The position numbers were made by a program, and so were the translations under genes. Below are positions 4,565 through 64,000 of a stretch of 64,000 nt of DNA, one piece after another. Source of the stretch: a virus; the UHGV virus genome UHGV-1455077; one strand, given 5' to 3'. Every line of letters starts with the position of its first letter. Position 1 is the stretch's first letter. The notes under the pieces were generated by a model. The model had not been told where the DNA came from and did not search any database. It saw nothing but the letters and a program-made list of their open reading frames with translations.

Positions 4565-4591
4565 AAAGAGGGTTTAATAACCCTCTTTTTT
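4564..4591. terminator. bidirectional rho-independent terminator between convergent genes
   Basis: aaagagggtttaataaccctctttttt. Confidence 0.8.
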
Positions 4592-4991
4592 AATATCCAC
4601 AAGTGTACCATCTTCTTATATTTAAACCGTTACCAGAATAGAAATGAATTACAAATGAAGAATTAGTTACACTTACTATTGTTGCAGGAATATGCCAACC
4701 TGTAACAGTTTGTGACCAAGCACCATTAAATCCAGTTGTTTGAGTTATAAAATAATCAGAATTTGTATAAGGTTTGTGTAATTGAATTGTAATTTCAGAA
4801 TCAACTGCATTATAAGATTGTCCACCTTGTTCAATCCAGCCATCTGACCAAACACGATACCATTCAGTTCCTTCATTCCAAGTTTCAATGATATATTTTC
4901 TATTTTCTAAATTAATTAATCGGTTATTTATTTCATCTAATTTTGAAATTAATTCATCTACTCGTGATATAGGTAATTTACTTGTATCCAT
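4590..4991 (-). CDS. small fibre/whisker-like protein: N-terminal coiled coil plus conserved C-terminal domain (W.R.WSDGW.EQ.G ... CGY)
   Basis: Paralogue of 37183..37584 and 56649..57053; shares the YR.WSDGW.EQ motif with the C-termini of 61025..64000 proteins. Confidence 0.6.
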   Translation of the reverse strand: MDTSKLPISRVDELISKLDEINNRLINLENRKYIIETWNEGTEWYRVWSDGWIEQGGQSYNAVDSEITIQLHKPYTNSDYFITQTTGFNGAWSQTVTGWHIPATIVSVTNSSFVIHFYSGNGLNIRRWYTCGY

Positions 4992-5090
4992 TTGAATTAT
5001 CCCCTTTGTCTGTATTTATTAAATACAGACAAACTTTATAAAGAAAAAATTATACAATAAATATTATTATATTGATAGGAGAATATACTA

Positions 5091-9540: not shown

Positions 9541-9542
9541 TT

Positions 9543-29542: not shown

Positions 29543-29617
29543 ATTTTTCCTATTGACAAGTAATTTTTATATGTTATATTAACCTTATCAAAAACAACAA
29601 TGAAAGGTTAATAAGAT
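29536..29617 (+). repeat. promoter and 5'UTR module, copy 2 (identical to 9543-9624)
   Basis: 82 bp identical, including TTGACA, -10, leader hairpin and RBS. Confidence 0.7.
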
Positions 29618-29813
29618 GTCTAAAATTGCTAAATTTGTTTTAAGATTTGGTTACAAAGATAAATTTGTTTTAAAAACAGGTAATTTATATTCTGAACGTG
29701 GCGTTAACTCCATTGAAGAAGCTAATCAATTAGTTAAAGAAGCAAATATGAAAATGTTTGATGAGGTAACTTTATTTAATCAGCGTAATTGGAGCATCGT
29801 TAAAAAGTATTAA
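29616..29813 (+). CDS. hypothetical protein
   Basis: 65-aa ORF downstream of the repeated promoter module. Confidence 0.45.
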   Translation: MSKIAKFVLRFGYKDKFVLKTGNLYSERGVNSIEEANQLVKEANMKMFDEVTLFNQRNWSIVKKY

Positions 29814-37171: not shown

Positions 37172-37186
37172 TGACCGCTTTTTTAA
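37159..37186. terminator. bidirectional terminator between convergent genes
   Basis: aaggcggtcttaatgaccgctttttt. Confidence 0.65.
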
Positions 37187-37584
37187 TAACCATAAGCATA
37201 CCAAATAGTATGACGGTTATGATAACAAGAAAATGATGATGTTGTTCGTGTACCTCTATTTATTGTAGCATTTCTTGAATTGTCAGATGTGCTTGATGGG
37301 TCTGATTCTGAAAATAAAACTTCATAATTTGTTGTTGTAAATTCTTTTAACAATTGAACTGTTACTGTTGCACTAGTTCCAGATGTTATGATACTTCCTT
37401 GTTCAATCCAGCCATCTGACCAAACTCTATACCAATCATCTCCATTGGAATATGTTTCAATAATATGTTTATGTGATTCTAGTACACTTATTCTATTTGA
37501 TAATGAAGTAATATTGTTATTAATTTCTTCAAGTTTTGTTAATAATTCGTCAACACGAGAAATAGGTAATTTACTGCTATCCAT
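37183..37584 (-). CDS. small fibre/whisker-like protein (paralogue of 4590..4991 and 56649..57053)
   Basis: MDSSKLPISRVDEL... coiled coil, then WYRVWSDGWIEQG and C-terminal YGY. Confidence 0.6.
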   Translation of the reverse strand: MDSSKLPISRVDELLTKLEEINNNITSLSNRISVLESHKHIIETYSNGDDWYRVWSDGWIEQGSIITSGTSATVTVQLLKEFTTTNYEVLFSESDPSSTSDNSRNATINRGTRTTSSFSCYHNRHTIWYAYGY

Positions 37585-37626
37585 TGAATTATCTCCTTTA
37601 TTTCTATTTAATAAATAGAAATAAAC

Positions 37627-38160
37627 TCAATATTTAATGAAGTAATTAACTATTGAAGCAGGTGGTTGAACGGTATTTGATTTACCATAAATTGAATTAT
37701 ATGAATTTAAATTACCATTGATAATAATTTTACGTGGAGCATTACTTCCTGTATCAGCACCACCATTAGCATTTTCTATAGCTCCAGAATCACTTCCTGA
37801 AATAGAGCCTGTATTATTTTGTAAGCCAATAAATCTACCGTGGGCTTCTACTAAATAAAATGAACCACTCATATCTACATTTGGTAAACCAGCTTCAATT
37901 TCCTGACCTAAAGATTGATTATCATTTATCATTTGAAGAAATTTACCTTTGTAATTAGGCACATTAAATGTTGTTGTGCCGTCACCAAAGCCAAAAGTTG
38001 TTCCAATAATTTCAAATAAATCTACATAATCAGTTCTTGATACTTCCTGACCGTCACATAAAAGCCAACCATTTTTATATGTTCTTAATGAATATGTTAA
38101 ATCACCTGGTTCAACACCATCATCAATACGATTCATTTTAATTTTTGATATATCAGCCAT
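37627..38160 (-). CDS. phage tail-collar domain protein
   Basis: GWLLCDGQEVSRTDYVDLFEIIGTTFGFGDGTTTFNVPNYKGKF matches the tail-collar fold. Paralogue of 60506..61024. Confidence 0.7.
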   Translation of the reverse strand: MADISKIKMNRIDDGVEPGDLTYSLRTYKNGWLLCDGQEVSRTDYVDLFEIIGTTFGFGDGTTTFNVPNYKGKFLQMINDNQSLGQEIEAGLPNVDMSGSFYLVEAHGRFIGLQNNTGSISGSDSGAIENANGGADTGSNAPRKIIINGNLNSYNSIYGKSNTVQPPASIVNYFIKY

Positions 38161-38253
38161 ATTAACCCCTTTGAAGTTATTTAATAAATAACTTCAAACC
38201 TTTTTAATGATTCTTCAATGAATAAATATTTGTATAGTTTTAAAGGTTATTAA

Positions 38254-49137: not shown

Positions 49138-49141
49138 CATT

Positions 49142-50131: not shown

Positions 50132-50142
50132 GGAAAAAAATT

Positions 50143-51069
50143 ATGGGTAATATGGTTCAATTTGGAGTTTGGTCTAATTGTTGTAATGCGTGTGATTTTT
50201 GTTTACGTGAAGAAAGAATTCCATATAGCAAAGAAAAACAATTATATTATTTAGATATGATTAAAAAGAATATTGAATATATTGATTGGAAAGATAAATT
50301 TTCATATGGAATTTCATTACTTGGCGGAGAATTATATTACATTACTGATAAAGATTTACAAAAATCATTTCTTGAATTAATTGATGTTATTATTGAAAAA
50401 GTATTAAAAGTTTCTACTAATCCAGAATGTAAGTATTCAACTGTTACAAATGGATTATACGACCCTGCATTTTTATATCAAGTTATTGATAAAATTGTTA
50501 ATGAAGTAGGATTAAAAGCAATTGATGTTAATTTTTCATATGATTTAAAATACAGATTTAAATCAGAAGAAGACCGTTTAAAATGTTTAAAAAATATTAA
50601 TGATTTTCATTCAAGATATGATTATAATGTTGGTGTGCAAATGATTATGACACAATATGTTATTAATGAATGGAAAGCTGGACGATTTGATGTCAATAAA
50701 TTTATGGAAGAAGAAATTCCAGGAAATTATTTAACGTTTTTATATCCACATCCTGTAAGAACAGGTAAAAAATTAGATGATTTTAATTTTAACAGAAATG
50801 ATTTTTTAGATTTTATTCAATATTTAAAAGATGAATGTTATAATGTTTATTTGTCATTTTTACATTCAACAAAAAATTCAGGAACTTTTAAATATACAGG
50901 CTTACAAAATCGTATTCATCCATCAGTTAATGCCCAGCCTGTATTATCAGATGGTAAAGAAATTATAAATCAAGAATGTGGTCATTCTATCATATATAAA
51001 TGTTATAGCGATTGTGATGATTGTGTCTTATGCGATTTAAAAAATTTTGATGAGGAAGTATATCTATGA
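50143..51069 (+). CDS. radical SAM enzyme, paralogue 3
   Basis: CCNACDFC; SLLGGELYY; C-terminal ECGHSIIYKCYSDCDDCVLCD. Confidence 0.8.
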   Translation: MGNMVQFGVWSNCCNACDFCLREERIPYSKEKQLYYLDMIKKNIEYIDWKDKFSYGISLLGGELYYITDKDLQKSFLELIDVIIEKVLKVSTNPECKYSTVTNGLYDPAFLYQVIDKIVNEVGLKAIDVNFSYDLKYRFKSEEDRLKCLKNINDFHSRYDYNVGVQMIMTQYVINEWKAGRFDVNKFMEEEIPGNYLTFLYPHPVRTGKKLDDFNFNRNDFLDFIQYLKDECYNVYLSFLHSTKNSGTFKYTGLQNRIHPSVNAQPVLSDGKEIINQECGHSIIYKCYSDCDDCVLCDLKNFDEEVYL

Positions 51070-52052
51070 AAAAACAAATGCAATTTGAATTATGGGACGA
51101 ATGTAATTCTAAATGTACTTTTTGTCATTTATGTAATAAAAATGGAAATACTCCAAATAATATAAAATTAGAAATGCTTCAAGATACATTAGATAAAATT
51201 TCTGATTTATCAATTTATTCTGAATATAATACAATTGGTTTTATTGGTGGGGAATTTTTTCAAGGACAACTTAATACGCCTGAAATTAAATCTAAATTTA
51301 TGGAATTGATGGATAAGGCTTGTTGGTTATTAAATAATGATTATATAGATAATGTTTGGATTAATGCTACATTAACAATTGGAAATCAAGATGATTTATA
51401 TGCCGTTTTAAAGCGTTTTGAGGGGCATAAAGGAAATTTATGGATACTTACCTCATTTGATACATTAGGACGCTTCCACACCCAAAAAATGAAAGATAAT
51501 TGGGATTATCATATGAAGAATATTCATAATTTATATCCAGAAATTAAATTTAATATTACTACTATTTTATCAGGTGATTTTATTGAACGCTATTTAAATG
51601 ATGAAATAAATTTTGAGCAATTTATGCAAGAATATAATGCTTCATTATTTTTTAAAGTTCCTGCATTACAAAAAGAATATTATCATACTAATAAAGAAAT
51701 GAATGATAAAATTGGTTATTTTTTTCCTACACGGGATTTATTTTTAGAATTTTTATCAAAATTTAGACAAACAGAACATCCTGATTTATGGAATAAATTA
51801 TTTAATATTGAATATCGTGCCGATACATTATATTGTAAAGAAAATGGCGATGATATAGAAATAACTCGTTCTAAAGATAATAATTATATGGAAACAATTA
51901 TAGATACAACCATTAATGAACAAATGGAAAGAGTAAAAGAAAAGCAAATGGATTATATTATGGATTGCGGGCATTTAAGTACATATAATTCTTATATAGA
52001 TGAAGATGGTTGTGCATTATGTGATAAGTTAATGTTTGAAGAACTAATATAA
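51066..52052 (+). CDS. radical SAM enzyme, paralogue 4
   Basis: CNSKCTFC; IGFIGGEFF; FFQGQLNTPEIKSKFMEL; C-terminal DCGHLSTYNSYIDEDGCALCD. Confidence 0.8.
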   Translation: MKKQMQFELWDECNSKCTFCHLCNKNGNTPNNIKLEMLQDTLDKISDLSIYSEYNTIGFIGGEFFQGQLNTPEIKSKFMELMDKACWLLNNDYIDNVWINATLTIGNQDDLYAVLKRFEGHKGNLWILTSFDTLGRFHTQKMKDNWDYHMKNIHNLYPEIKFNITTILSGDFIERYLNDEINFEQFMQEYNASLFFKVPALQKEYYHTNKEMNDKIGYFFPTRDLFLEFLSKFRQTEHPDLWNKLFNIEYRADTLYCKENGDDIEITRSKDNNYMETIIDTTINEQMERVKEKQMDYIMDCGHLSTYNSYIDEDGCALCDKLMFEELI

Positions 52053-52072
52053 ATATTTCAAAAGGTAAAATA

Positions 52073-53023
52073 ATGAGTAAACAGATGCAATTTGAGTTAT
52101 GGCAAGAATGCAATTCTAAATGTAAATTTTGTTATTTAGGAAAAGAAAATTGTCATACACCAGATGAATTAAAATTACAATCTTTACAAAATGCAATTGA
52201 TAAAATTTCTGATTTATCAATTTATTCTGAATATGATACTTTATCATATCTGGGTGGAGAATTTTTTCAAGGACAACTTAATACGCCCGAAATTAAATCT
52301 AAATTTATGGAATTGATGGAAAAAACCGCTTGGTTATATGATAATGATTATATTAAACACGTATGGATTTATGCTACATTAACTATCGGCGACCAACAAG
52401 ATTTATATGATACTTTGAAATTATTTAATAAAAAAGATGAATTATGGATTTTAACATCATATGATACAATTGGTAGATTTCATACTAAAAAGATGTTTGA
52501 TAATTGGGATTATCATATGAAGAATATTCATAATTTATATCCAGAAATTAAATTTAACATTACTACTATTTTATCAGAAGACTGTATAGACAAGTATTTA
52601 AATGATGAATTGTCATTTAAAGATATGATGGAAGAATATCATTGTTCATTCTTTTTTAAGCAATGCGGCAATGGTTCTTATACAAAAGAAGAAATGAATA
52701 CAATTATTCCTCACTTCTTTCCACCTAGAGATAAATTTATTGACTTCTTACAAAAATTCCGCAATGAAGAAAATGATGAAATGTGGAATAAATTATTTAA
52801 TATTCATTATAGAGCAGATAGTTTGTATAGGAATTTCAATGATAAAAATCATCAAATGGAATTAAATGTTCGTCATAAAGATTCATTAAATGAAATTGAA
52901 AATGATAATAAAGATGAAATGGAAACAAATGAATGTGGTCATTTAAAAGTTTATGCGGCATATATTGATTGTGATGAGTGTGTACTTTGTGATAAATTAA
53001 TGATAGAAGAATTTTTAAAATAA
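52073..53023 (+). CDS. radical SAM enzyme, paralogue 5 (very recent duplicate of 4)
   Basis: CNSKCKFC; LSYLGGEFF; DNA stretches >50 bp identical to paralogue 4; C-terminal ECGHLKVYAAYIDCDECVLCD. Confidence 0.8.
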   Translation: MSKQMQFELWQECNSKCKFCYLGKENCHTPDELKLQSLQNAIDKISDLSIYSEYDTLSYLGGEFFQGQLNTPEIKSKFMELMEKTAWLYDNDYIKHVWIYATLTIGDQQDLYDTLKLFNKKDELWILTSYDTIGRFHTKKMFDNWDYHMKNIHNLYPEIKFNITTILSEDCIDKYLNDELSFKDMMEEYHCSFFFKQCGNGSYTKEEMNTIIPHFFPPRDKFIDFLQKFRNEENDEMWNKLFNIHYRADSLYRNFNDKNHQMELNVRHKDSLNEIENDNKDEMETNECGHLKVYAAYIDCDECVLCDKLMIEEFLK

Positions 53024-53033
53024 GGAAATATAA

Positions 53034-53510
53034 ATGATTACAATTGAAAATAATGATAATGATATTATGATTGAAAATGATGTCAATCAACCATATGTAA
53101 AAAAAATTATATTAAATAAAAGTATTACTATTAAAGCACAAACTAATACTTCTTTTGATATTAATACTGTCTTTAAATTTACTGATAATAATGATTTTGC
53201 ATTTGTTGAAGGTGTTATTGTTGATGCAAAAGATTATTATGTAGTTGGAGAAGTATATAGTTTAGACCGCCAAAATAATAAATTATCTTTATTAATTGGT
53301 AATAATTCAAATGTATCTTATACAATTCCAGCAGGAACTCATATTGCTAATATCTATACATTAGCAAAAAATTTTAGTGGTAATGTTATATATAATAATG
53401 GAAATATTGCAGTAATAGATTATAATAACTATTATAAAGTTAGTGATACAACTTTAACTGAATTTCCAGATGGAAAAAAAGCTATAACAATTAATTTAGA
53501 TAAAGAATAA
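53034..53510 (+). CDS. hypothetical protein embedded in the radical SAM cassette
   Basis: 158-aa ORF; ATGA overlap with the next gene. Confidence 0.45.
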   Translation: MITIENNDNDIMIENDVNQPYVKKIILNKSITIKAQTNTSFDINTVFKFTDNNDFAFVEGVIVDAKDYYVVGEVYSLDRQNNKLSLLIGNNSNVSYTIPAGTHIANIYTLAKNFSGNVIYNNGNIAVIDYNNYYKVSDTTLTEFPDGKKAITINLDKE

Positions 53511-54466
53511 TGAGTTTACAAATACAATATGAATTATGGAGAGAGTGTAATTGTAAATGTACATATTGCACTCTTGGAATAGATAATTGCTTAACAAGTA
53601 ATGAATTAAAACTTCAATCAATGCAAACAGCAATTGATGAAATGAAACAATTTAAATCAAATGAACATCAAACAGTTGGTTTTATTGGTGGAGAGTTTTT
53701 TCAAGGACAACTTAATACACCTGAAATTAAATCTAAATTTATGGAATTAATTACAGAAGCAAATAATTTATTAAATAATAATATTGTAAAAGATTTATGG
53801 CTTAATGCATCATTATTAATCGGTAATCAAGATGATTTATATGAAGCAATAAATTTAATTAATGATAAAACAAAACTATGGGTTTTAACATCATATGATA
53901 CAATTGGTAGATTTCACACATCTAAAATGTTAGATACTTGGAAATATCATATGAATAAACTTCATAATGATTATCCAGAAGTTAAATTAAACACTACAAG
54001 TATTTTAACGGGTGATTTTATTGAAAAATATTTAAATGATGAATTTGATATTGAAGATTTTAAAGCTAAATATCATACCAATTTATTTTTAAAAACAACT
54101 GTTAAACCTGGTCATTTAAGCCATTTAACAAAACAAGAAATTAATGATAAGATAGGTAATTTTTTTCCTACACAAGAAAAATTTCAAGAATTTTTATTTA
54201 CATATTATTCACGTGAAGGAGAAGATGAATATCATAAATTGTTTAGTAATGATTTAAGAGCCGATGAGGTTCGTAAAAATTTCAATGATGAAAATAAAAG
54301 AAATATTAAATTTATAAGAGATAAAAACACTCTTGAAGAAACAATTGATTGTATTGATGAACATATTGATAATTTATCTTGTGGTCATTCATCTATCTAT
54401 CAATCTTATGTTGATTCAGATGATTGTTCAATATGTGATAAACAACAAATTTTGGATATAATTTAA
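53510..54466 (+). CDS. radical SAM enzyme, paralogue 6
   Basis: CNCKCTYC; VGFIGGEFF; C-terminal SCGHSSIYQSYVDSDDCSICD. Confidence 0.8.
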   Translation: MSLQIQYELWRECNCKCTYCTLGIDNCLTSNELKLQSMQTAIDEMKQFKSNEHQTVGFIGGEFFQGQLNTPEIKSKFMELITEANNLLNNNIVKDLWLNASLLIGNQDDLYEAINLINDKTKLWVLTSYDTIGRFHTSKMLDTWKYHMNKLHNDYPEVKLNTTSILTGDFIEKYLNDEFDIEDFKAKYHTNLFLKTTVKPGHLSHLTKQEINDKIGNFFPTQEKFQEFLFTYYSREGEDEYHKLFSNDLRADEVRKNFNDENKRNIKFIRDKNTLEETIDCIDEHIDNLSCGHSSIYQSYVDSDDCSICDKQQILDII

Positions 54467-55101
54467 TGCCTGATTTTGAAAAAAATAATTATTATAAAAT
54501 TATAGATATAAAAACAAATGCTATTATTTGTGCAGGGAAGATTGCATTTATTAAACAAACTAAAGATATGCCTATTCTAATTAGTTTTGATAATAAATTC
54601 TTCTTCAATTCCGAAGGAACTTCAAAATATAAAGTTGTTAAATCTGATACAGAGGTTGATGTTCCTTTATTAAGAAATATTATATTAGAATCTTATAAAA
54701 TATGCTTATATGAAGATTATTTTAATTATCCTGATTATGATATATTTAGAGAATATGATATTAATGAATTAGATGAGCCAGTTATTAAATTAGTTACTAT
54801 ATTAAATAAATTTGATGATATTGAAACCACAGGAAGTTGTTGCGGACACGGTGATAATTATTTATGGGTTGATATTATGTTTCATTCGTTATCATCTATT
54901 AATTTAATTATTGATTTATTAAATGATGATAAATGGAATAATAAATTTATTTTAAGTAATTATTATACTAATAAAAATAAATCTAATTATTCTGTTATGC
55001 TACATTTACGTTCATTTACTAAAGGTGAAGAAGCATATAAAGATGCTAGTTTATTAGCAGATGATTTACAAGAAATTTATGAATTACTTTATGGATTATA
55101 A
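54466..55101 (+). CDS. hypothetical protein following the radical SAM cassette (contains a TTGSCCGHGD motif)
   Basis: 211-aa ORF with ATGxxTAA coupling to radical SAM 6. Confidence 0.45.
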   Translation: MPDFEKNNYYKIIDIKTNAIICAGKIAFIKQTKDMPILISFDNKFFFNSEGTSKYKVVKSDTEVDVPLLRNIILESYKICLYEDYFNYPDYDIFREYDINELDEPVIKLVTILNKFDDIETTGSCCGHGDNYLWVDIMFHSLSSINLIIDLLNDDKWNNKFILSNYYTNKNKSNYSVMLHLRSFTKGEEAYKDASLLADDLQEIYELLYGL

Positions 55102-55144
55102 ATGATATTTAGATTTTAAATAATTTATTATAGAAATAAACTAT

Positions 55145-55176
55145 AAAAAAGAGAGCTTTTTAAAGCTCTCTTTAAC
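55145..55176. terminator. bidirectional terminator between convergent genes
   Basis: aaaaaagagagctttttaaagctctctttaac. Confidence 0.75.
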
Positions 55177-56551
55177 TATCACCTTGAGCAAAAATTATTC
55201 TAAAAGCTACTGTTGGACCATCAAATGTGTAACCTATTGTAAATTTTTGTCCTTTTCTAACAGGAAAATAAAGAACATCATTAACACCACTTGTTGACCA
55301 TTTTATTGCAATTGTATTTTCATCAACGCTAGTTGATGGTAAATCATTATCATAAGCAATCATATATTGACCACTAGCAGTTGCTTGTTTAACAAATTGA
55401 ATATATCCATTTGCTAATGCTGTATAAGTTGTTCCAGATACACCTAATTCTAAATCAACATATTTAGAAGAAGGCATTGCTTGTTCTGCAATAAAAGTCG
55501 TATCATTTTTATCTAATAATTGATTTGTATTATATGGATTAAAAGAAATTATTTTACCTAAATTATTAGATATTGCTGTTCCACAAATATATCTTTGTTG
55601 ATTATCCCAAGTAGTTCCATTATAATAAAACATTTTATTATCATTTAAAACAAAATAATTTCCATTTCCAAAAACTTCTTCTTTTGTTTTAATGGTAAAT
55701 ATTGGTCTAAATAAAAGGGAATTAGATTGTTGAATAAAAATATATCCATTTCTTTCAATAGTTTCATTATAAATTAATACATTTGTTGTAATCGTTTCAA
55801 TATTATTTAAACTACCATCTGAATTTCTATTATTTGGAATCAATCCTTTAACTCCAGGTAATGCAAATATTGTTGAACCAATAAAACCCAATCCATTAAA
55901 TATCTGGTCAATAGAAATAATTCCAGTACCATTTGTTATATTTAATAAACTAAATGGCAACGAACAACCATTTTGCCAATTTGCTCCATTATCAATAGTA
56001 TATTTAATAATATTATTTGCAGTATCATACCAAAAAGCATATGTTGCAGTAACGGTTGGTGCAGTATCTCCACTAAATTGTTGAGTTGATATTACCAATG
56101 CTTGAATTAAATTTGTTGGTAATAAACAAGCCATATGTTGGTTAGAAGCATAGGTTGATGCATTAAAACTAATATCATTCTCAATTATTTTAATATCAAA
56201 TTTTTTAGTAGTACCATCAGTTTCAAAACCATTAGGAATATATAATTTACTACCTGCTTTTAAAGTAATCGTATTATCTGAATTTAATTCTACTTTAATA
56301 TCTTGAGGTATTTCAGTAATGCAATTAGTAACTTGATTATAACCTATTTGTTCTTCACGCCATATTAAATTAGTGCCATCATTACTTAATATTTGTTGAC
56401 TTGTTTCAGTATTAAATTCTGGTATTGCTCCACCGTCAGGAGTTATATAAAATTCATTTTCAACTAATTGTCCAGCTTCTTTTAATTCTTCATATTTTGC
56501 TGAACTCATTTTATTAAATTTTAATTGTGCAATATCTGTATTTGTTGTCAT
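55172..56551 (-). CDS. tail fibre / receptor-binding protein (start probably MTTNTD with RBS aaggaaaag; the track gives 56581)
   Basis: Paralogue of 57378..58643 (ITLKAGSKLY, QVFNGLGFIG, FDKNDTTFI shared motifs). Confidence 0.6.
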   Translation of the reverse strand: MTTNTDIAQLKFNKMSSAKYEELKEAGQLVENEFYITPDGGAIPEFNTETSQQILSNDGTNLIWREEQIGYNQVTNCITEIPQDIKVELNSDNTITLKAGSKLYIPNGFETDGTTKKFDIKIIENDISFNASTYASNQHMACLLPTNLIQALVISTQQFSGDTAPTVTATYAFWYDTANNIIKYTIDNGANWQNGCSLPFSLLNITNGTGIISIDQIFNGLGFIGSTIFALPGVKGLIPNNRNSDGSLNNIETITTNVLIYNETIERNGYIFIQQSNSLLFRPIFTIKTKEEVFGNGNYFVLNDNKMFYYNGTTWDNQQRYICGTAISNNLGKIISFNPYNTNQLLDKNDTTFIAEQAMPSSKYVDLELGVSGTTYTALANGYIQFVKQATASGQYMIAYDNDLPSTSVDENTIAIKWSTSGVNDVLYFPVRKGQKFTIGYTFDGPTVAFRIIFAQGDS

Positions 56552-56612
56552 AATAAACTTTTCCTTGATAAACTTATACAAATATTTATTTTAAAATTAT
56601 TGATAATAAAGT

Positions 56613-56639
56613 TTGTGGATATTTATTAAATATCCACAA
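56613..56639. promoter_or_regulatory. 27-bp perfect palindrome in a divergent promoter region, candidate operator (copy 1)
   Basis: TTGTGGATATTTATTAAATATCCACAA; identical copy at 60458-60484. Confidence 0.6.
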
Positions 56640-56648
56640 AGGGGATAA

Positions 56649-57053
56649 TTGATGACTGATATAAGTAAAATAGATATGGAACGAATTAATGGATTACTTG
56701 ATAAACTTGAAGAAGTAACTGATAAACTTAATTCAATGAAATATGTTGTGGAAACTGGTGGAGATTCAACGCAATGGTATAGAAAATGGAATGATGGTTT
56801 TATAGAACAATGGGGGAATATAATTTTTTCACAATCTGCTGGAAGTTATACTAATCAAACAACAACATTACCAATAGCATTTTCTTCAACTGCATATTAT
56901 ATAACACTTATTGCAACAAATTCAAATAATCAACAAAGTCACACCTGTGGTATTTTAGTTAAAAATAAAAATTCATTTAATTGGTCATCATCATATTGGT
57001 GGGCAAGAGATGCATATGTTTCAAGCTTTAATTGGTATGCGTGTGGATATTAA
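56649..57053 (+). CDS. small fibre/whisker-like protein (paralogue of 4590 and 37183)
   Basis: MMTDISKIDMERINGLLDKLEE coiled coil, WYRKWNDGFIEQWG, C-terminal ACGY. Confidence 0.6.
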   Translation: MMTDISKIDMERINGLLDKLEEVTDKLNSMKYVVETGGDSTQWYRKWNDGFIEQWGNIIFSQSAGSYTNQTTTLPIAFSSTAYYITLIATNSNNQQSHTCGILVKNKNSFNWSSSYWWARDAYVSSFNWYACGY

Positions 57054-57082
57054 AAAAGAGAGGTTTTAAAACCTCTCTTTAT
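57052..57082. terminator. bidirectional terminator
   Basis: aaaaagagaggttttaaaacctctctttatt. Confidence 0.75.
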
Positions 57083-57378
57083 TCTTTTGGATATTTTTCT
57101 TTAATTGATTTAATTAATGTTTGCCAGTTATTTGTTCCATCTTCTAAATCGTGATATATCATATCTAACTGTTCAGCTAATGGTGGATATTCTTTTAATC
57201 TATTATTAATAGCAACAGCATTATGTGATTCAGATTCTTTAATATATTCTCCATTAACTAAAATATATTTTTCATTTGTTTTCACTATTTTATCAAATTC
57301 CATAAGAGGAATAGATTCAATTTCTTTCTTTGTATTTTTAACTACAATAATCTTGTTATTTTGATAACCTAACCACAT
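57079..57378 (-). CDS. hypothetical protein
   Basis: 99-aa ORF whose stop overlaps the upstream gene start. Confidence 0.45.
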   Translation of the reverse strand: MWLGYQNNKIIVVKNTKKEIESIPLMEFDKIVKTNEKYILVNGEYIKESESHNAVAINNRLKEYPPLAEQLDMIYHDLEDGTNNWQTLIKSIKEKYPKE

Positions 57379-58643
57379 TATATTTCCCCTTTTGCATAGA
57401 TAAATTTAAAACTAATTAAATTTGTAAATTCAGTATCAAACAATATTTGACAAGTTTCACCTTTTAAAACAGGTATAATTGTTCTTAAATATTTGTCTGC
57501 ACTTCTTGATGCATAACAATAACCATAATTTAAACCACTTCTTATAATAGCTATATCAACCCAGTTTGGCCCTTGCCCATCTATACTGAAATAACCATTT
57601 GCTGGAGCAATATAAGTTGCTCCTGATGCTCCTAAAGTTAATGAAACATATTTACTACCTGGCATAACTTGTTGTGTAATAAATGTAGTATCATTTTTAT
57701 CAAATAATTGATATGCATTATTAAAACTAAATGTAGTAATTTTTCCAGAAGCATCAGTTAAAAATGTTCCAATTGGACATACTACCCAATCATTTAACCA
57801 TCCATTTGAAATATCATTTAAAACATATTTCCATTTATTTTCATTTGGAGAATACCAAATAGAATATGTAGATAATGTTGGTGCATTATTTTGATAATAA
57901 ACTTTTGATGTTTCTAAAAACTCTAATTGTCTTTCATCATCTGAAACTCTAGCAAATAATGTATATGATGTATTTGGAGCTAAAGATATTGTCCAATAAG
58001 TTAAAGTAGGTAAAATTTTTACAATATTATTTTGACTTCCATCATCATTGTTACCATTTGGAAATATATAAGTATTTCCACCATTTTTAATTATTGTATT
58101 TCCAATAAAACCAAATCCGTTAAATACTTGGTCAATAGATGTCCAAGATGTTGTAGTAGATGTTCCAATAGCAAATGGAAAAGAACATTCTTGCCAACCA
58201 TCAGTTGTATCCAAATAACATTTTTTATCAGTTGTATTAAAATAAATTTTAAATGTTGCAGTTGATTCGGGTAATTCAGATACAGTTTCACCTGTTAAAA
58301 ATCCAGTTAATAATACATCATAATCTTTAGAAAGTGCTAACATAACTTGACCATCATAATTTGCATTTGCACTTGTAATATCTGTTGTGGTAGTTTTCAT
58401 AATACCATTACCATTATAAACTTTACTACCTGCTTTAAGTGTAATTGTACCATTATTTAATTCAAGTTTAATATCTTGAGGTATTTTTGTTAAACAGTTT
58501 GTAATTTGACCATAAGTCCAATATGGTTTAGAACCATTATTACTTAACATCATTCCTGATGTTTCATCATTCATTAATGGCATTTGAACACCATTTAACA
58601 TAATTTTTTGACTAAGTTCATTGTTACCTAAATATAATGTCAT
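57378..58643 (-). CDS. tail fibre / receptor-binding protein paralogue
   Basis: Shared motifs with 55172..56551. Confidence 0.6.
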   Translation of the reverse strand: MTLYLGNNELSQKIMLNGVQMPLMNDETSGMMLSNNGSKPYWTYGQITNCLTKIPQDIKLELNNGTITLKAGSKVYNGNGIMKTTTTDITSANANYDGQVMLALSKDYDVLLTGFLTGETVSELPESTATFKIYFNTTDKKCYLDTTDGWQECSFPFAIGTSTTTSWTSIDQVFNGFGFIGNTIIKNGGNTYIFPNGNNDDGSQNNIVKILPTLTYWTISLAPNTSYTLFARVSDDERQLEFLETSKVYYQNNAPTLSTYSIWYSPNENKWKYVLNDISNGWLNDWVVCPIGTFLTDASGKITTFSFNNAYQLFDKNDTTFITQQVMPGSKYVSLTLGASGATYIAPANGYFSIDGQGPNWVDIAIIRSGLNYGYCYASRSADKYLRTIIPVLKGETCQILFDTEFTNLISFKFIYAKGEI

Positions 58644-60397
58644 TATTCACCCCAATCTACTATTGTTGCCGCAATATATGTTTTTAAAATTTTGTACATT
58701 TCCATCCAGTATGTTGTATTTGTTAATTCTGTTCCCGCTGGAATATTATCTTGTAATCCTAAATAACCATATTGAGCTGTACTATCTTCATATGTTACAA
58801 AATCACTAGCAATATATGCTTTACTTGAATCCCAATCACCTTTAGGATTAATACCTTTACCACTTGTAATATCTACTGGAGTTGGGTTTTCTAAACCACC
58901 GTCATTTGTCCAAGATAATGTATAACCATTTTCCATAGGAGTTAATTCTGGAGTAAATGTTATACCTTCTGTACCAATATTAAGATTGTAAAAATATTTT
59001 AAATCTACTAATGTTCCAGCAGTTAATCCAGAAACTAATGTAACTGTTTTTTTATCTGTTCCTAATGTATAAGCCGCAGAAGTTAATTCTGTATTACCAA
59101 CATTTACAGACAATACTGATTTATCATAAATTTCGTGAGAAGCTACAAAAGTTGTTTGTCCTTCTGTGGCTGTAAATGATTCAACAATTCTTTGTGCATA
59201 ATTAGTATAGATAGAAATTGTTTCAGGATTATCTAAATTTTTATTATTTGTAAATGAAATTGTTGCTTCGTGTGCATCTTGTGTTGTATGTGGTGTATAT
59301 GTAACACCATCAGAAATAACAACGTCCGTTGGATTAGGCAATCCAGCATCATTTGTCCAAGATAATGTTGTATCCAAACCAACTTTAGTTTGAGTTGGAG
59401 TATAGGTTGCACCATCTTTTATAATAACAGTATTTGGATTTTCCAATTCTCCATCATTTGTCCAAGATAATGTTGTTTCTGTTCCTGTTTTAGATTGTGA
59501 AGGAATAAATGTAACACCATCATAGATATGAGAATCTGCTGGGTTTTCTAAACCACCGTCATTTGTCCAAGATAATGTTGTATCTCTATCAACTTTATTA
59601 ATATGAGGAGTATAAGTTGCACCTACTTGAATCTCTAAATTATTAAACCAAGATAATTGAACTCTTGTTCCTATTGGAACAGCATTTTTTAAAACAACGG
59701 TATCTAAAGTTTCATTTAAATCCCATTCAGAATTTAAAATAACTGAATTTTCAATATTAACAGTAATTAAATCTTTTTTAAGAACTTTTTCACCTAAAGG
59801 AAAATCAGTTGTACTTTCTAAAGTTGTTGTAAATGATTTTGAAACAATTTGAGATACGTTTGTTGGAATAATCATATTACCATATACAATTACTTCAATA
59901 TTATTACCTGGTTCAACTGGCTCATTAAAAGTAAGAGTTTTACCATCTTCAGCTAATGTATAGTTATTTGATTGTAATAAAAGGTTATTAATATTAACTG
60001 ATAAAGATTCTTTGTTAGCAACTGCATCATCTAATACAACACTTGTAATTTCATTTACAGGGTCATAGAAAAATTTAGATGATTTAAAATAACCTGCTAA
60101 TAATTGCCATTTATTAAAATCAAATGGTTCTTGAGCTGTATGTTCCATTCTACATTGAAATAAACTATTATTATATGAAACAATATCGCCAACACGGTAA
60201 GTAATACCAGGTGTCCAAATTGTTGAAGTATTATCACCACCTGTACCACCAATATCGTGAGCAACTTCATCAGGTGTTAAATATTGAGCAAAACCATCAT
60301 TATTAATTTTTACATAAGTATTAGGATTATCCTTAAAAGGTGATTGAAATTCATCAATCATACTTGTTGTAATTTTTATATTTGGTGTTCCAACCAT
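58643..60397 (-). CDS. tail fibre protein with four tandem ~30-aa repeats (start moved to MVGTPNIKITTSM)
   Basis: Repeats ...TYTP..TK...DTTLSWTNDGGLENP.... The track N-terminal extension to 60565 runs through the palindromic operator and intergenic promoter. Confidence 0.6.
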   Translation of the reverse strand: MVGTPNIKITTSMIDEFQSPFKDNPNTYVKINNDGFAQYLTPDEVAHDIGGTGGDNTSTIWTPGITYRVGDIVSYNNSLFQCRMEHTAQEPFDFNKWQLLAGYFKSSKFFYDPVNEITSVVLDDAVANKESLSVNINNLLLQSNNYTLAEDGKTLTFNEPVEPGNNIEVIVYGNMIIPTNVSQIVSKSFTTTLESTTDFPLGEKVLKKDLITVNIENSVILNSEWDLNETLDTVVLKNAVPIGTRVQLSWFNNLEIQVGATYTPHINKVDRDTTLSWTNDGGLENPADSHIYDGVTFIPSQSKTGTETTLSWTNDGELENPNTVIIKDGATYTPTQTKVGLDTTLSWTNDAGLPNPTDVVISDGVTYTPHTTQDAHEATISFTNNKNLDNPETISIYTNYAQRIVESFTATEGQTTFVASHEIYDKSVLSVNVGNTELTSAAYTLGTDKKTVTLVSGLTAGTLVDLKYFYNLNIGTEGITFTPELTPMENGYTLSWTNDGGLENPTPVDITSGKGINPKGDWDSSKAYIASDFVTYEDSTAQYGYLGLQDNIPAGTELTNTTYWMEMYKILKTYIAATIVDWGE

Positions 60398-60457
60398 TTC
60401 AATTTTCCTTATATATTCATATAAGATATTTATAAAAAAATTTAGGAATAAAAAAGT

Positions 60458-60484
60458 TTGTGGATATTTATTAAATATCCACAA
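60458..60484. promoter_or_regulatory. 27-bp perfect palindrome, copy 2
   Basis: TTGTGGATATTTATTAAATATCCACAA inside the 36-bp repeat aaagtttgtggatatttattaaatatccacaaaggg. Confidence 0.6.
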
Positions 60485-60505
60485 AGGGTTATTTTGGAAA
60501 TAGTT

Positions 60506-61024
60506 ATGGCTGATATTAGTAAAATTAAAATAGATAGAATTGATGGTCTTGAAGAAGAACTTCAAAAAGTATCATCACCTGGTGATTTATGTTATTCATT
60601 ATGTACTTCAAAAACAGGTTGGCTTTTATGTGATGGAACAAGTTATTCAGTTTCAGATTATCCAAACTTATTTAATGTCATTGGTTATACCTTTGGTGGA
60701 AGTGGAGATAATTTTAATGTGCCTAATTACAAAGGTAAATTTCTTCAAATGATAAATGATAATCAATCTTTAGGTCAGGAAATTGAAGCTGGTTTACCTA
60801 ATATTGTAGGTAAATTTTCAGGAAGATGTATATTAAATGATTCTATACAATATTCAGGTGCCCTTTATGAAGATAATACATATACTACTCAATTAGCTGG
60901 TGGTACATCAGGTAATCATACTAGAGGTATTGGTTTTAATGCATCAAAATCAAATACAATTTATGGTAAGTCAAATACAGTTCAACCACCTGCTTCATTA
61001 GTTAATTACTTCATCAAATATTAA
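60506..61024 (+). CDS. phage tail-collar domain protein (start moved to MADISKIKIDR)
   Basis: GWLLCDGTSYSVSDYPNLFNVIGYTFGGSGDNFNVPNYKGKF; paralogue of 37627..38160. Confidence 0.7.
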   Translation: MADISKIKIDRIDGLEEELQKVSSPGDLCYSLCTSKTGWLLCDGTSYSVSDYPNLFNVIGYTFGGSGDNFNVPNYKGKFLQMINDNQSLGQEIEAGLPNIVGKFSGRCILNDSIQYSGALYEDNTYTTQLAGGTSGNHTRGIGFNASKSNTIYGKSNTVQPPASLVNYFIKY

Positions 61025-62320
61025 TTAATATCCTTCTGCTTGCCAATAACCAGCAGTAATTGTCATACCTGTTGTTGTAATATTAGTTGCTCCAACAGTT
61101 GTTGTTAATGGTATATTTTCAAATGCAACAGGAAATACTGGATTAGCATTATTTCCCCATTGTTCTTTCCATCCGTCTGAATAAATTCTATATCCAATTG
61201 TTGTTGCTTGTTCTTTAACTACAAAATGATGCTCAAAACTTGAAGTTAAATCTCGTGTTGGAAAATAAGAACTTAATTGTGAAGATGTTGCTTTAAATCT
61301 ACCAATTAATTTATATCTATTTGTTGGTTCAACATCAGAATAAATGAAATCATCATTTATAAAATCATAATATACATTATATGTTACATTAATTTTTAAT
61401 GATTCTGTATTAAAGTATTCAATTTTCATATAACCATTAGAACCATTATAAGCAATAGTATTACTACCAGAAGTATTTGAATCTCCACCTTTACCATATG
61501 TTTCATAAACTGGTGTGCCACCATTTTTATAACCACCATTTGCTCCATAATTTCCTGAAACACCATCTAAATTAAATACTTCTTCTTCAATAGTAAAATT
61601 AATTACTGTTGTTAATCCACCAGTCTTTGCGGCTTCTGCTCCACTTCTCCACCAAGAATGTCCACCAAAACCACCAGGTGTTGAAATATATTGGCTATCT
61701 GATAATTTTAATATTGTTGCTCCACCTGTATCACCAGTTGCATTCATATCTAAACCATATTTTGCATTACCACCTTGACCAACAGTTAAAGTATAAGTTC
61801 CTTCTGCTAAAAATACTTTACATTGATATGCTGAACCAGATGCACCTGCGGATGATGCAGATGAATTACTTGATTGTGTTCCTGCTCCGCCACCACCAGC
61901 ACCAACAGTTGTAATAATATAAAAACCAGAAGGTAAATATTTTTGAATAGTTTGTGGTGTATCACTTTCAAATAATATTTCTCCAGCAGTTAAATCAATT
62001 TCACTTTCATCAGCAAATTTTAAGTTTTTTACTGTTGGTTTATTAAAAATATATAATTTTTCTGTTTCTTCATCATAAAATGAGCCTTCACTTATAATAA
62101 GTCTATTATCAAAATTTGATAAAGTTAAACCATTATTATATTCACGTAATGCCATATGAGAAACTAAATCATCTTGTGGAATATAATTAATTGTTTTCTC
62201 ATCTTCAAAAACTGCAATGTTATTTGCATTATTAAATGGTTTAATATTTAATTCTAAACGTGGATTTGATATTTTTACACTCATTTTAATAGCCTTTTGC
62301 AAACCAATAACCAGCGGCAA
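61025..62320 (-). CDS. tail fibre / receptor-binding protein with Gly-rich region and conserved C-terminal domain
   Basis: GAGGGGAGTQSSNSSASSAGASGS...; C-terminal IGYRIYSDGWKEQWGNNANPVFPVAF...GY. Confidence 0.6.
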   Translation of the reverse strand: MPLVIGLQKAIKMSVKISNPRLELNIKPFNNANNIAVFEDEKTINYIPQDDLVSHMALREYNNGLTLSNFDNRLIISEGSFYDEETEKLYIFNKPTVKNLKFADESEIDLTAGEILFESDTPQTIQKYLPSGFYIITTVGAGGGGAGTQSSNSSASSAGASGSAYQCKVFLAEGTYTLTVGQGGNAKYGLDMNATGDTGGATILKLSDSQYISTPGGFGGHSWWRSGAEAAKTGGLTTVINFTIEEEVFNLDGVSGNYGANGGYKNGGTPVYETYGKGGDSNTSGSNTIAYNGSNGYMKIEYFNTESLKINVTYNVYYDFINDDFIYSDVEPTNRYKLIGRFKATSSQLSSYFPTRDLTSSFEHHFVVKEQATTIGYRIYSDGWKEQWGNNANPVFPVAFENIPLTTTVGATNITTTGMTITAGYWQAEGY

Positions 62321-63278
62321 TTGTCATTCCTGTACGAGTAACAGCAGAAGCCCCTCTTGAAATAGATAATGGAATTTCATTAAATGCTACTGGAAATACA
62401 GGATTAACTAAATTACCCCATTGTTCTTTCCATCCGTCTGAATAAATTCTATATCCTGTCGTTCCTGATTGCTCTTTAATTATATATCTATTTTGATATG
62501 ATGTTGCTAAATCTTGTGTTGGATAATAACGAACAATTGAGGTGCTATCACTTGCAGTTACAAAATAGCCTATTTCTCTAAATACTTCTCCATTATTTTC
62601 AAAATCAGTATCTGCACTTTGTGATAGTACATAAGGATATAATGCATTAGGTTGTAATGTTGGCATATCAATAATGAAATCTTGAGTAATTTCTAAATAT
62701 TTTTTATCTAATATTTTTTTATAATGATATTCATTATTAATCGGAACATAATATAATAATTCATCACCTTCATTCATTATTGGTTTATCTGCATAACTTG
62801 TTATAATCATATCATATTCATTAATATGATTTTTAATACGGCAAAGATAATATTTTAATGTTTCTCCTGTTGATGAATCTAATCCGCCATCACCATTTGT
62901 ATTATATAAATTAGTTGTATATCTTACTTGATAATTATTAACTGTTAAATCCATCGGTTGAAATTGATATGTTACATTAATATCCCATAATGGATAATTT
63001 GAATGAAAATGCTGTTGATTAGAATTTATTTCAAGATAGTAATCACAAACTGTATCTAAAAAGGTATGCCCTTTTGTAAGCATTAATTGCCCATTTACCA
63101 TTTTAAATGTTAATCCAGAAGAAGCATTTGAAAGATTATATTTTTCTGCAAGTTCAGTTGAAGAAATAGTATCTAATGCAGAAGCGTTTGAATTTATTAC
63201 AACAAATCCATTATTATCAGGCAATGGACGTTCAAATCTATTAAATTTTATTTTATTTGTCATATTAATATCCTTCAA
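62286..63278 (-). CDS. receptor-binding protein paralogue (same C-terminal domain)
   Basis: C-terminal TGYRIYSDGWKEQWGNLVNPVFPVAF...AKGY. Confidence 0.6.
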   Translation of the reverse strand: MKDINMTNKIKFNRFERPLPDNNGFVVINSNASALDTISSTELAEKYNLSNASSGLTFKMVNGQLMLTKGHTFLDTVCDYYLEINSNQQHFHSNYPLWDINVTYQFQPMDLTVNNYQVRYTTNLYNTNGDGGLDSSTGETLKYYLCRIKNHINEYDMIITSYADKPIMNEGDELLYYVPINNEYHYKKILDKKYLEITQDFIIDMPTLQPNALYPYVLSQSADTDFENNGEVFREIGYFVTASDSTSIVRYYPTQDLATSYQNRYIIKEQSGTTGYRIYSDGWKEQWGNLVNPVFPVAFNEIPLSISRGASAVTRTGMTIAAGYWFAKGY

Positions 63279-64000
63279 CCTTCCAATTTCTTGCTGTAAT
63301 TGTCATACCTGTTGTTGTAACATTTGTAGCATCTCTTTCAACAATTTGTGGTATTCTAATAAAAGCAACAGGAAATGTTGGATTAGCATTATTTCCCCAT
63401 TGGACTTTCCATCCATCTGAATAAATTCTATATCCAATTGTTTCAAGTGATTCAGCAATAACATTACCGTGCATAAATGATTCTTCAAGAGTTAATGATG
63501 GATAAAAATATTCAGTTTCATTTAAAATATTTGTGTTATAAAAACCTATTTTAGCATATTCAGTATATCCATCAGGCAAAGTTGGAATGTTATCAATTGA
63601 AGTTAATATTTTTCCTTCTTTATTTTCTCCACCTATTGCAAAAATATTATATGATTGATTAGGTATTCTAAAATCGTGATAATATGCAACAATTATAAAT
63701 CTTCCTATTGATACATATCCTTCTGCGTGTGTTGAAGCATAATTAACATATCTAAAATAACTATATTCTTTTAAAGTTTCTTTTGCTTGATATTCATTAA
63801 TAGCATTTTCCACAGTATTTGGAATAATATCTTTATTATTAACAGAAACCAATATGTCCCAATTAACTCCATCTTGAGAAGCTAAAATATCAAAAACTGT
63901 TCCACTTGTTGTTGCATCAGCTTGTCTATTTTGAATAACAAATTTTTCAACTCTTATTGGAAATATTGTTTTATATTGTAGCCAATGTGGATATTCCGTA
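63265..64000 (-). CDS. receptor-binding protein paralogue, N-terminus beyond window end
   Basis: The reading frame stays open from the track Met at 63852 to position 64000. C-terminal IGYRIYSDGWKVQWGNNANPTFPVAF...EGY. Confidence 0.5.
   Translation of the reverse strand, partial: TEYPHWLQYKTIFPIRVEKFVIQNRQADATTSGTVFDILASQDGVNWDILVSVNNKDIIPNTVENAINEYQAKETLKEYSYFRYVNYASTHAEGYVSIGRFIIVAYYHDFRIPNQSYNIFAIGGENKEGKILTSIDNIPTLPDGYTEYAKIGFYNTNILNETEYFYPSLTLEESFMHGNVIAESLETIGYRIYSDGWKVQWGNNANPTFPVAFIRIPQIVERDATNVTTTGMTITARNWKVEGY

Follow-up and report, generated by a model that had tools for sequence, protein, structure and literature searches.

Two identical 36-bp elements (AAAGTTTGTGGATATTTATTAAATATCCACAAAGGG) are located at positions 56608-56643 and 60453-60488, both on the + strand, of the 64,000-nucleotide stretch of the virus genome UHGV-1455077 that we have analysed here (the window). 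Our work places them in a family of palindromes that is found in one clade of jumbo phages, and each member of this family precedes the start codon of a small gene for a putative tail fibre tip protein or, in one lineage, of another fibre gene. The family members share an invariant apex that consists only of A and T, whereas the bases of the stem vary as long as they can pair. We tentatively propose, and give this idea a little less than an even chance, that the element is the portable, structure-dependent promoter of the small-gene cassette. The original prediction had regarded it as the operator of a dimeric transcription factor that controls both divergent promoters. The idea of a cis-acting palindrome in late-promoter-like divergent intergenic regions next to genes of the receptor-binding type is supported by our analysis, but that of a simple sequence-specific operator shared by two promoters is not.

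In an exact search, the 36-mer was detected at these two positions, no further match with up to three mismatches is present in the window, and the chance expectation is zero as judged from 100 dinucleotide shuffles. The core of the repeat is a 29-bp palindrome (56612-56640 and 60457-60485) with the arms TTTGTGGATATTTA and TAAATATCCACAAA and a single central T. The inverted repeat had been described with arms of 13 bp; it is real, but the arms are 14 nt long with one extra pair at each side. Moreover, even though the arms match, the palindrome is not strictly perfect since the central T remains unpaired and the reverse strand differs by one base. The divergent geometry of both copies was borne out after the start codons had been refined from the sequence: Copy D is flanked by the leftward fibre gene 55172-56551 (- strand, 459 aa) and the rightward gene 56652-57053 (+ strand, 133 aa, Gp53-like_C), and copy E by the leftward gene 58643-60397 (- strand, 584 aa, CBM_5_12) and the rightward gene 60506-61024 (+ strand, 172 aa, Collar). 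What had appeared to be a feature with two copies comprises two exact 36-mers but five family members in the window. The three additional elements (A, B and C, see Table 1) were identified in a scan for short-loop inverted repeats. They have the same 14+1+14 architecture and the same outer TTTG/CAAA and inner TATTTA.TAAATA boxes, and differ in the middle of the stem. A covariance model built from 15 distinct copies and run over the whole window with the filters switched off gave exactly five matches in the sense orientation (61-72 bits), with the next best match at 16 bits. Read in the orientation of the gene, all five conform to the pattern (A-rich)G-TTTG-N4-TATTTA-N-TAAATA-N4'-CAAA-GG.., followed by an ATG 9-20 nt later. 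The palindromes thus form a repeat family, yet each copy is found at the 5' end of a gene rather than scattered over non-promoter positions.

Table 1. Palindromic elements, the genes behind them and associated features in the window.
Feature	Coordinates	Strand	Description
Copy D, 36-bp repeat	56608..56643	+	palindrome 56612-56640, stem GTGGA, then GGGG (Shine-Dalgarno), ATG at 56652
Copy E, 36-bp repeat	60453..60488	+	palindrome 60457-60485, stem GTGGA, then GGG, ATG at 60506
Member A	5005..5033	-	stem GTCTG, central A in gene orientation, 13 nt before the ATG of 4590-4991
Member B	37597..37625	-	stem ATTTC, outer box TTTA/TAAA; located after the stop of Collar gene C and ahead of the ATG of 37183-37584
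Member C	38170..38198	-	stem GAAGT, 9 nt before the ATG of 37627-38160
Gene A	4590..4991	-	133 aa, MDTSKL..; between the dUTPase gene and the gene cluster of the Ig-domain 912-aa protein
Gene B	37183..37584	-	133 aa, weak match to Gp53-like_C
Gene C	37627..38160	-	177 aa, Collar
Gene D	56652..57053	+	133 aa, N-terminus MTDISKI.., Pfam Gp53-like_C
Gene E	60506..61024	+	172 aa, N-terminus MADISKI.., Pfam phage tail Collar
Late-like promoter motif	5056..5064	+	of the divergent 172-aa/912-aa genes; 23 nt from palindrome A
Late-like promoter motif	38221..38229	+	of the divergent 889-aa gene; 23 nt from palindrome C
Late-like promoter motif AATAAATAT	56582..56590	-	of the fibre gene 55172-56551; 22 nt from palindrome D
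Late-like promoter motif TATAAATAT	60426..60434	-	of the fibre gene 58643-60397; 23 nt from palindrome E
Bidirectional intrinsic terminator, GC-cored	57055..57080		closes cassette D, between the convergent gene D and 57079-57378

Relatives of the phage were found by pattern scans of IMG/VR and by a DNA pattern scan of metagenome contigs; a megablast search with the region 55000-62500 gave no match among the GenBank phages, and tblastn searches with the ATPase and Collar proteins returned only distant matches (31-48% identity) and no annotated relative. In the scanned collections, the element is confined to one clade of jumbo phages with a GC content of 25%. The contigs of this clade are 203-286 kb in size and carry 9-11 copies each, and several of them are labelled as human gut metagenome. 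The window itself is 96-99% identical to IMGVR_UViG_3300045988_152892. The 119 hits in related contigs correspond to 47 distinct sequences, and each copy is located 7-23 nt upstream of the ATG of a gene of the M-x-D-x-SK family or, in the one lineage where the module is fused to another kind of fibre gene, of a gene whose product starts with MALYLGS. When the palindrome pattern was used without the trailing GG, no additional copies were found in the four jumbo contigs that represent the clade in IMG/VR; matches of this pattern elsewhere are AT-only palindromes in giant viruses and unrelated phages that do not belong to the family. Similarly, a looser pattern made of the loop and the 3' arm gave mostly chance matches to AT-rich sequences outside the clade in IMG/VR.

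The five genes downstream of the palindromes in the window are paralogues that encode proteins of 133-177 aa with the common N-terminus M-x-D-[IT]-S-K-[IL]..R-[IV]-[DN], followed by either a Gp53-like C-terminal knob or a Collar domain. If homologues of the small proteins were fetched independently of the DNA motif, every gene of the clade with the M-x-D-x-SK start had a perfect palindrome upstream, with one exception (L035) in which the upstream palindrome has a single mismatch. In more distant phages, the knob domain forms the end of long fibre proteins, and no palindrome is present. All five small genes of the window are oriented against the genes that flank them, and this is nearly always the case across the clade. 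A related knob was observed next to gene E: three consecutive fibre genes on the minus strand (61025-63852; 431, 330 and 195 aa) share the same C-terminal knob of about 60 aa (GYRIYSDGWKEQWGN...GY), which is in turn related to the Gp53-like_C domain that the small genes encode. Since the knob is common to these three genes, we can conclude that this locus encodes many alternative tips on one fold.

The constraint on the element concerns the pairing of its arms. In 609 pair cells from the 47 distinct sequences, 99.8% are Watson-Crick pairs. Double-sided changes affect six of the 13 pairs (103 cells), and there are neither one-sided changes nor G·U pairs. The observed pairing was reached in none of 500 shuffles, slid controls were far off as well, and an analysis with 15 sequences had the same outcome. 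About 20 variants of the mid-stem occur and all of them are self-complementary; the arms are 14 or 15 nt long, and the insertion is compensated in the three variants with 15-nt arms. In one copy, even the outer box is changed, to TTCA/TGAA instead of TTTG/CAAA. The same is seen in pairwise comparisons: at the orthologous A locus, the window and a relative with 84% identity differ by a double change from C:G to T:A, and two paralogues in one genome that have a single mismatch in 76 nt of leader and N-terminal coding sequence nevertheless carry three compensated differences in their stem pairs. An internal mismatch is present in a single copy; it is C·A when read in the sense strand and would become G·U in an antisense transcript only. 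The 13-nt apex TATTTA(T)TAAATA is invariant in all 47 distinct rows with the exception of the central base, and GG always follows directly after the 3' arm, even where the working Shine-Dalgarno sequence is located further downstream. The computed stability of the hairpin is -8.2 to -10.5 kcal/mol as DNA and about -13.5 kcal/mol as RNA. Extended pairing of the flanks around the hairpin, such as a sequestration of the AUG in copy D, was considered and discarded, as it is not conserved between the copies. Judged from these alignments, the apex of the element would therefore be recognised by its sequence, whereas the requirement on the stem would be a structural one, and the lack of wobble pairs argues that this requirement holds on both strands of the DNA.

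It had been assumed that the palindrome acts on both neighbouring genes. Our data link it to the small gene. Many genes of the phage are preceded by a motif that resembles the late promoters of phage T4, [AT]ATAAATAT followed by ..TATA, about 20-30 nt (in one case 56 nt) upstream of the ATG. The sequence WATAAATAT is not enriched overall in the window with its GC content of 25% (23 observed, 26 expected), and the information thus resides only in its position and strand. The large divergent genes next to the copies A, C, D and E each have a ATAAATAT-type motif of their own, 22-23 nt away from the palindrome. In the relative IMGVR_UViG_3300045988_143958 (L019, about 9040-9080, compared to 56598-57053 of the window), the palindrome and gene D are absent together, while the gene for the 459-aa fibre protein keeps its ATAAATAT promoter, which is directly abutted by the terminator of the upstream operon. 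Two conclusions can be drawn: the fibre promoter is independent of the palindrome as it persists without it, and the palindrome and the small gene are gained or lost as one unit, since both are missing together. The junction in this relative shows only microhomology of the TTAAAA type, and the boundary of the indel is about 14 nt outside of the palindrome. The relatives provide at least six distinct contexts in which the palindrome is preceded, at a distance of 0-9 nt, by the end of a canonical GC-rich intrinsic terminator. At the E locus, a comparison of relatives revealed that the 25 nt upstream are not conserved, in contrast to the apex of the palindrome, the outer boxes and the following GGG; the mid-stem is GTGGA in one and GTTCT in the other. 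The abutting terminators and the lack of conservation upstream of E leave room for a promoter only inside the palindrome. Taken together, the element is, to judge by its sequence contexts, part of the small-gene cassette rather than a shared operator.

A dimeric phage protein could still bind the palindrome with its monomers on the outer TTTG and the inner TATTTA boxes and act on an overlapping promoter of the small gene, and possibly also on the divergent late promoter, with the palindrome centre near position -50 of its start. The outer and inner boxes are indeed conserved and perfectly symmetric, and the strict Watson-Crick pairing without G·U and the symmetry on both strands fit recognition at the level of the DNA. 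In 27 of 51 contexts, the divergent ATAAATA motif is found at a tight distance of 22-25 nt. This spacing puts the dyad where activators of the class I type and the dyad of the P2/P4 late promoters are located. Moreover, a gene for a small generic DNA-binding protein is present at 15220-15642. However, the specificity of one protein does not predict about 20 self-complementary mid-stems and compensated arm lengths: four to five bp of each half-site vary freely and yet stay self-complementary. The divergent fibre promoter of 143958 does without the palindrome, copy B has no divergent partner gene and the copies preceded by a terminator have no divergent gene to regulate either, and no cognate regulator is linked to the site. 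We therefore regard an operator as unlikely, and the simple version that serves both divergent promoters is not supported in view of the self-complementary variation of the mid-stem, the tie to the small gene only and the copies without a partner.

In the model that we tentatively favour, the clade-specific 5' module of about 45 bp, (A-rich)G-TTTG-N4/5-TATTTA-T-TAAATA-N4/5'-CAAA-GG(G/A)...-ATG, would be the front part of a portable cassette composed of the palindrome, the ribosome-binding site and the small gene for the tail fibre tip. A -10 element similar to that of T4 late promoters (TAAATA) would lie within the invariant AT-only apex, and initiation would take place within the 3' arm, immediately ahead of the invariant CAAAGG. 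The inverted repeat would have to pair as a DNA hairpin or cruciform, with the sequence being read at the apex and the structure in the stem. Such a module would serve the small gene only, while the divergent large fibre gene would use its own ATAAATAT promoter about 23 bp away. Our data show the family membership of the copies, the constraint on pairing, the invariance of the apex, the strict position at the 5' end of genes, the behaviour as a cassette and the independence from the divergent promoter; promoter activity, the start site and DNA rather than RNA as the paired form are what we infer. The apex is similar to the late-like promoter [AT]ATAAATAT of the phage itself and presents TAAATA on both strands. 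A sigma-70 scan gave no more matches than shuffled sequences, and no usably placed -35/-10 pair was detected in or before the palindromes. The window encodes a UvsY-like recombination mediator, which suggests a T4-like biology. Several observations weigh against this model. In the sense orientation, the apex reads ATTAAATA with a mismatch at a core position, and in 46 of 51 contexts it is the opposite strand that carries the sequence closer to the consensus of the phage, AATAAATA. A position weight matrix derived from 13 canonical sites, which themselves score 10.5-17.7 bits, places the apex below almost all of them: in each orientation, four of the five copies reach 5.8-10.9 bits, and the lowest values are 5.8 in the orientation of the gene and -4.5 in the opposite one. 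The matrix scores D and E about equally in both directions and shows no consistent preference for one orientation across the five copies. The apex also lacks the downstream T..TATA of the canonical late-like sites, and T4-type late promoters are not known to require a hairpin. Neither a late sigma factor of the gp55 type nor a polymerase that reads hairpins was identified among the scanned open reading frames of the 64-kb window. Finally, selection need not be the only reason for the perfect symmetry, part of which could be due to templated mutation in palindromes.

The roles discussed here are not all mutually exclusive, and the hairpin might act, alone or in addition, in the RNA. At the 5' end of the mRNA of the small gene, it could stabilize the transcript against decay that depends on the 5' end, be the operator of an RNA-binding regulator of translation or be a site of processing. 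The hairpin alone has a stable fold in RNA, with z-scores of -1.9 to -4.9 for eight folds, and its 3' end is always exactly where the Shine-Dalgarno sequence starts. The invariant loop and upper stem in combination with a co-varying lower stem are the typical anatomy of an RNA operator, and in the tandem arrangement of C and B, a read-through mRNA from C to B would include palindrome B. On the other hand, the complete lack of G·U in 609 cells from 47 sequences is unusual for a constraint on one RNA strand, and the lone imperfect copy would have C·A in the sense RNA. The terminators that abut the palindrome leave no space for an upstream start in at least six contexts, and no RNA family matches: in a scan with Rfam 15, only tRNAs reached the gathering score in the window, and the best match at the element had an E-value of 0.19 and 19.7 bits as compared to a gathering score of 88. 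A role of the element primarily as an RNA hairpin thus seems rather improbable to us.

It is even less probable that the palindrome is mainly an insulator or terminator. Such a device would act on transcripts that come from the flanking main-direction operons and pass through the small gene in antisense, and it would stop them short of the next operon; it might also stop sense read-through. This could make sense as the small genes usually converge on or overlap the stop of the main-direction gene upstream, without a terminator in between (as for E and 61025-62320). The antisense strand reads CTTTTTT after copy E and CCTTTTT after copy C, and a consensus scan flags D and E as terminator-like. 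However, many copies (B, A, D and the L003 type) have a weak T-run or none at all, with a mean of 4.1 A residues in eight positions on that side. The base of the stem is rich in A·U pairs, whereas the real terminators of these phages have a GC core and A/T runs (57055-57080, 55148-55173, L007 and L016). Moreover, a pure terminator would not need the invariant 13-nt apex, and some copies already adjoin a real terminator. In a direct comparison with Rho-independent terminators, the element was discarded: the sense strand continues with GGGGATAA after the stem, the antisense tail is variable, and there are at most three to four G·C pairs, none of them at the base of the stem.

The terminators and gene junctions around the cassettes deserve mention in their own right. 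The structures at 57055-57080 and 55148-55173 are near-identical bidirectional terminators (AAAGAGAGG/C..loop..CCTCTCTTT) at junctions of convergent genes. In the relatives, the terminators beside palindromes are preceded by a conserved TATTTATAAAAA; on the opposite strand, this corresponds to a T-run followed by ATAAATA, and TATTTATAAAAA may be a composite terminator-promoter motif. The small genes typically converge on their neighbour with stop codons that abut or overlap by 4 nt and with no terminator in between (61024/61025; L003, L007, L008 and others). As a consequence, full-length transcripts of both genes must be mutually antisense, and antisense regulation of the small-gene cassettes is possible.

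The behaviour of the cassettes raises the question whether the palindrome has a recombinational function in the first place, as a structure-defined site or as a patch of homology for the insertion, exchange or deletion of cassettes, by analogy with integron attC sites or with the shuffling of the promoter-early stem-loop cassettes discussed below. Relatives differ in whether they have cassette D. One stem variant occurs in up to eight to nine contexts, and the same leader and N-terminus are found with different stems. The GTGGA stem is present in at least eight different contexts across the clade, which indicates that D and E share this variant by paralogy or gene conversion. Moreover, in a 1.1-kb gut contig (L226), the sequence upstream of D is connected to an E-type leader exactly across the 36-mer, and the phage encodes the UvsY-like recombination mediator. 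Nevertheless, we consider this explanation very improbable: no recombinase is associated with the cassettes, the boundary of the D indel is outside of the palindrome and exhibits only microhomology, the junction in L226 may be an assembly chimera at a repeat, and neither the invariant apex nor the fixed place beside the ribosome-binding site would be explained. In addition, the sole clear large rearrangement has its crossover in an 86-bp block inside genes and not at the palindrome.

This 86-bp block is an exact inverted repeat (37883-37968 and 60713-60798) that is located within the Collar genes C (37627-38160) and E (60506-61024). Compared to IMGVR_UViG_3300045988_152892 (L025, L017, L026), the approximately 23 kb between the two blocks are inverted, and thus the 3' modules of the Collar genes are swapped. 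Three types of 3' halves of the Collar gene are shuffled among the window, 152892 and 149940. The inversion could reflect shuffling of receptor-binding modules by homologous recombination, a segment that is invertible at the population level, or an ambiguity of the assembly at the inverted repeat. An exchange of fibre modules, as had been guessed before, is seen at the repeat in the Collar genes but not at the palindrome, and a switch between fibre sets finds no support at the palindrome: it is the unrelated 86-bp inverted repeat that marks the 23-kb inversion. As direct repeats of 36 bp that are 3.8 kb apart, D and E are potential substrates for a deletion. The contig L226 (OGPJ01045393.1, 1143 bp; about 117-930) contains the D flank, the GTGGA palindrome, the E-type leader with a Collar gene and then a palindrome of the B type; this could be the result of a natural deletion between the 36-bp direct repeats or, equally, an assembly chimera.

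The central base of the palindrome is the only variable position of the apex. Among 51 unique contexts, it is T in 46 and A in five, a count that is biased as the scans used for the collection required A or T at the centre. Every copy with A has a T twin that is otherwise identical, that is, five cassettes occur in both states in contexts without any other difference. Copy A of the window (position 5019) differs at this base from a relative with 99% identity (L001/L030), and the same was observed for four other cassettes in the relatives. This pattern is compatible with recurrent inversion of the loop ("flip-flop") or with simple changes from T to A. With T in the orientation of the gene, AATAAATA would face away from the small gene, whereas with A it would point into it. 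It is tempting to speculate that promoters of the DNA hairpin (cruciform) type are read by a T4-like late machinery and that a flip-flop of the central base turns single receptor-binding cassettes on or off, resulting in stochastic repertoires of fibre tips; we give this extended scenario very little credence.

Our literature search for the contig accessions and for earlier descriptions of such an element in jumbo phages of the gut did not yield anything. As no Rfam family, annotated phage or paper was found to describe the element, it appears to be a new form, with the promoter-like motif at the apex of a hairpin, of the repeated regulatory cassettes that combine a promoter and a stem-loop. 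The promoter-early stem-loop (PeSL) elements are mobile regulatory cassettes of T4-type phages, and they consist of an early promoter of the sigma-70 type and a separate terminator stem-loop (Arbiol et al. 2010, PMC2839356; Comeau et al. 2014, PMC4122927). Like PeSL, the module described here is a short repeated composite of a promoter-like sequence and a stem-loop in front of small open reading frames, with many dispersed copies. Indels and modular shuffling between close relatives may be a further parallel: cassette D shows an indel, but with its boundary outside of the palindrome, and L226 has a junction across the 36-mer, but may be an assembly artefact. Unlike in PeSL, the promoter-like motif is of the late type and sits at the apex of the hairpin, and there is no usable sigma-70 pair. 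Moreover, the stem consists of 13-15 bp, is A·T-rich and perfect and does not look like the real terminators of this phage: in the sense direction, nothing U-rich follows it, and an antisense T-run is present in some copies only. Finally, the palindromes serve a single family of paralogous genes. Closer to true PeSL than the palindromes are the two identical copies of an 83-bp direct repeat (9542-9624 and 29536-29618). Each copy precedes a different gene and is composed of a sigma-70-type promoter (TTGACA, 17 nt, TATATT), a leader and a ribosome-binding site. Further TTGACA promoters cluster at 11.3-11.7 kb and at 17.4 kb.

The closest precedent for a structure-dependent promoter is phage N4. 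In its hairpin promoters, conserved bases are contacted by the polymerase whereas the variable bases of the stem need only to pair; a GC-rich heptamer is centred at -11, and the loop has 3 nt (PMC4496689). N4 has three such promoters at one end of the genome, with stems of 5-7 bp, and they are used by a giant single-subunit virion RNA polymerase together with the single-stranded DNA-binding protein of the host (PMC4496689). The family studied here shares the inverted repeat just upstream of the presumed start, the conserved apex and the stem that only has to pair, and since the N4 promoters function at the DNA level, they fit the absence of G·U in our alignment. In contrast to N4, there are 9-11 dispersed copies with stems of 13-15 bp and an apex made of A and T only, and no gene for an N4-type virion single-subunit RNA polymerase was seen among the scanned open reading frames of the window. 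If the idea of an apex promoter is correct, these elements would be the second independent class of phage promoters, after N4, that is recognized partly as DNA structure, and this class would specifically serve a regulon made up of 9-11 accessory genes for receptor binding in abundant uncultured jumbo phages of the human gut.

T4-type late promoters have the sequence TATAAATA and no -35 element, and they depend on gp55, gp33 and gp45. The ordinary structural genes of the phage carry the similar [AT]ATAAATAT, and the apex of the palindrome holds TAAATA; unlike in T4, the sense apex ATTAAATA is mismatched at the core and is embedded in an obligatory palindrome. T4 itself has late promoters that lie inside a hairpin which silences read-through transcripts, namely those of the genes e, soc, 49 and I-TevI. 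Here as well, a promoter-like motif is located in a stem-loop next to the ribosome-binding site, and long transcripts would contain the hairpin whereas transcripts initiated at the promoter would not. The T4 hairpins, however, sequester the Shine-Dalgarno sequence or the AUG, and the stem of our element stops just before the Shine-Dalgarno sequence. The late promoters of P2 and P4, which depend on Ogr/Delta, contain partial dyads that are defined by their sequence and have no co-varying self-complementary spacers. The likeness is in a conserved dyad common to late operons about 50 bp upstream of the late start, if the palindrome is viewed relative to the divergent fibre genes; the difference is that the divergent promoter is kept without the dyad in the relative 143958. 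Other classes of repeats were considered and rejected. Integron attC sites form imperfect hairpins that contain extrahelical bases, lie 3' of promoterless cassettes and go with a tyrosine integrase. The hairpin of our element is not such a site as it is perfect and located at the 5' end, the cassettes are dispersed and not arrayed, and no integrase was seen among the scanned open reading frames of the window. Similarly, the single dispersed copies, the 5' position, the odd length of the perfect palindrome and the lack of an associated enzyme speak against CRISPR repeats, REP/RAYT elements, attC and protelomerase sites.

The signature G-TTTG-N4/5-TATTTATTAAATA-N4/5-CAAA-GG can be used to find every fibre tip cassette in such genomes. 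Our analysis also identifies the units in which host range determinants are shuffled, i. e. the cassettes and the modules of the Collar genes. Even if the element turned out to be an operator or a hairpin of the 5' untranslated region, it would define a co-regulated set of host range genes.

Some features in the vicinity are worth recording. Just upstream of the fibre locus, the region 47364-54466 contains a tandem array of about seven paralogues of 290-330 aa, some of which are 71-75% identical to each other at the DNA level. Several of them have weak radical-SAM/4Fe-4S matches, an unusual cargo at this place. Between 12441 and 28252, there are 21-23 tRNA genes, all on the + strand, among HNH/homing endonuclease genes (13147-13491, 19498-20163 and 22821-23231). 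Finally, a DNA polymerase fragment of 176 aa is encoded at 8623-9153, which suggests that the polymerase gene is split.

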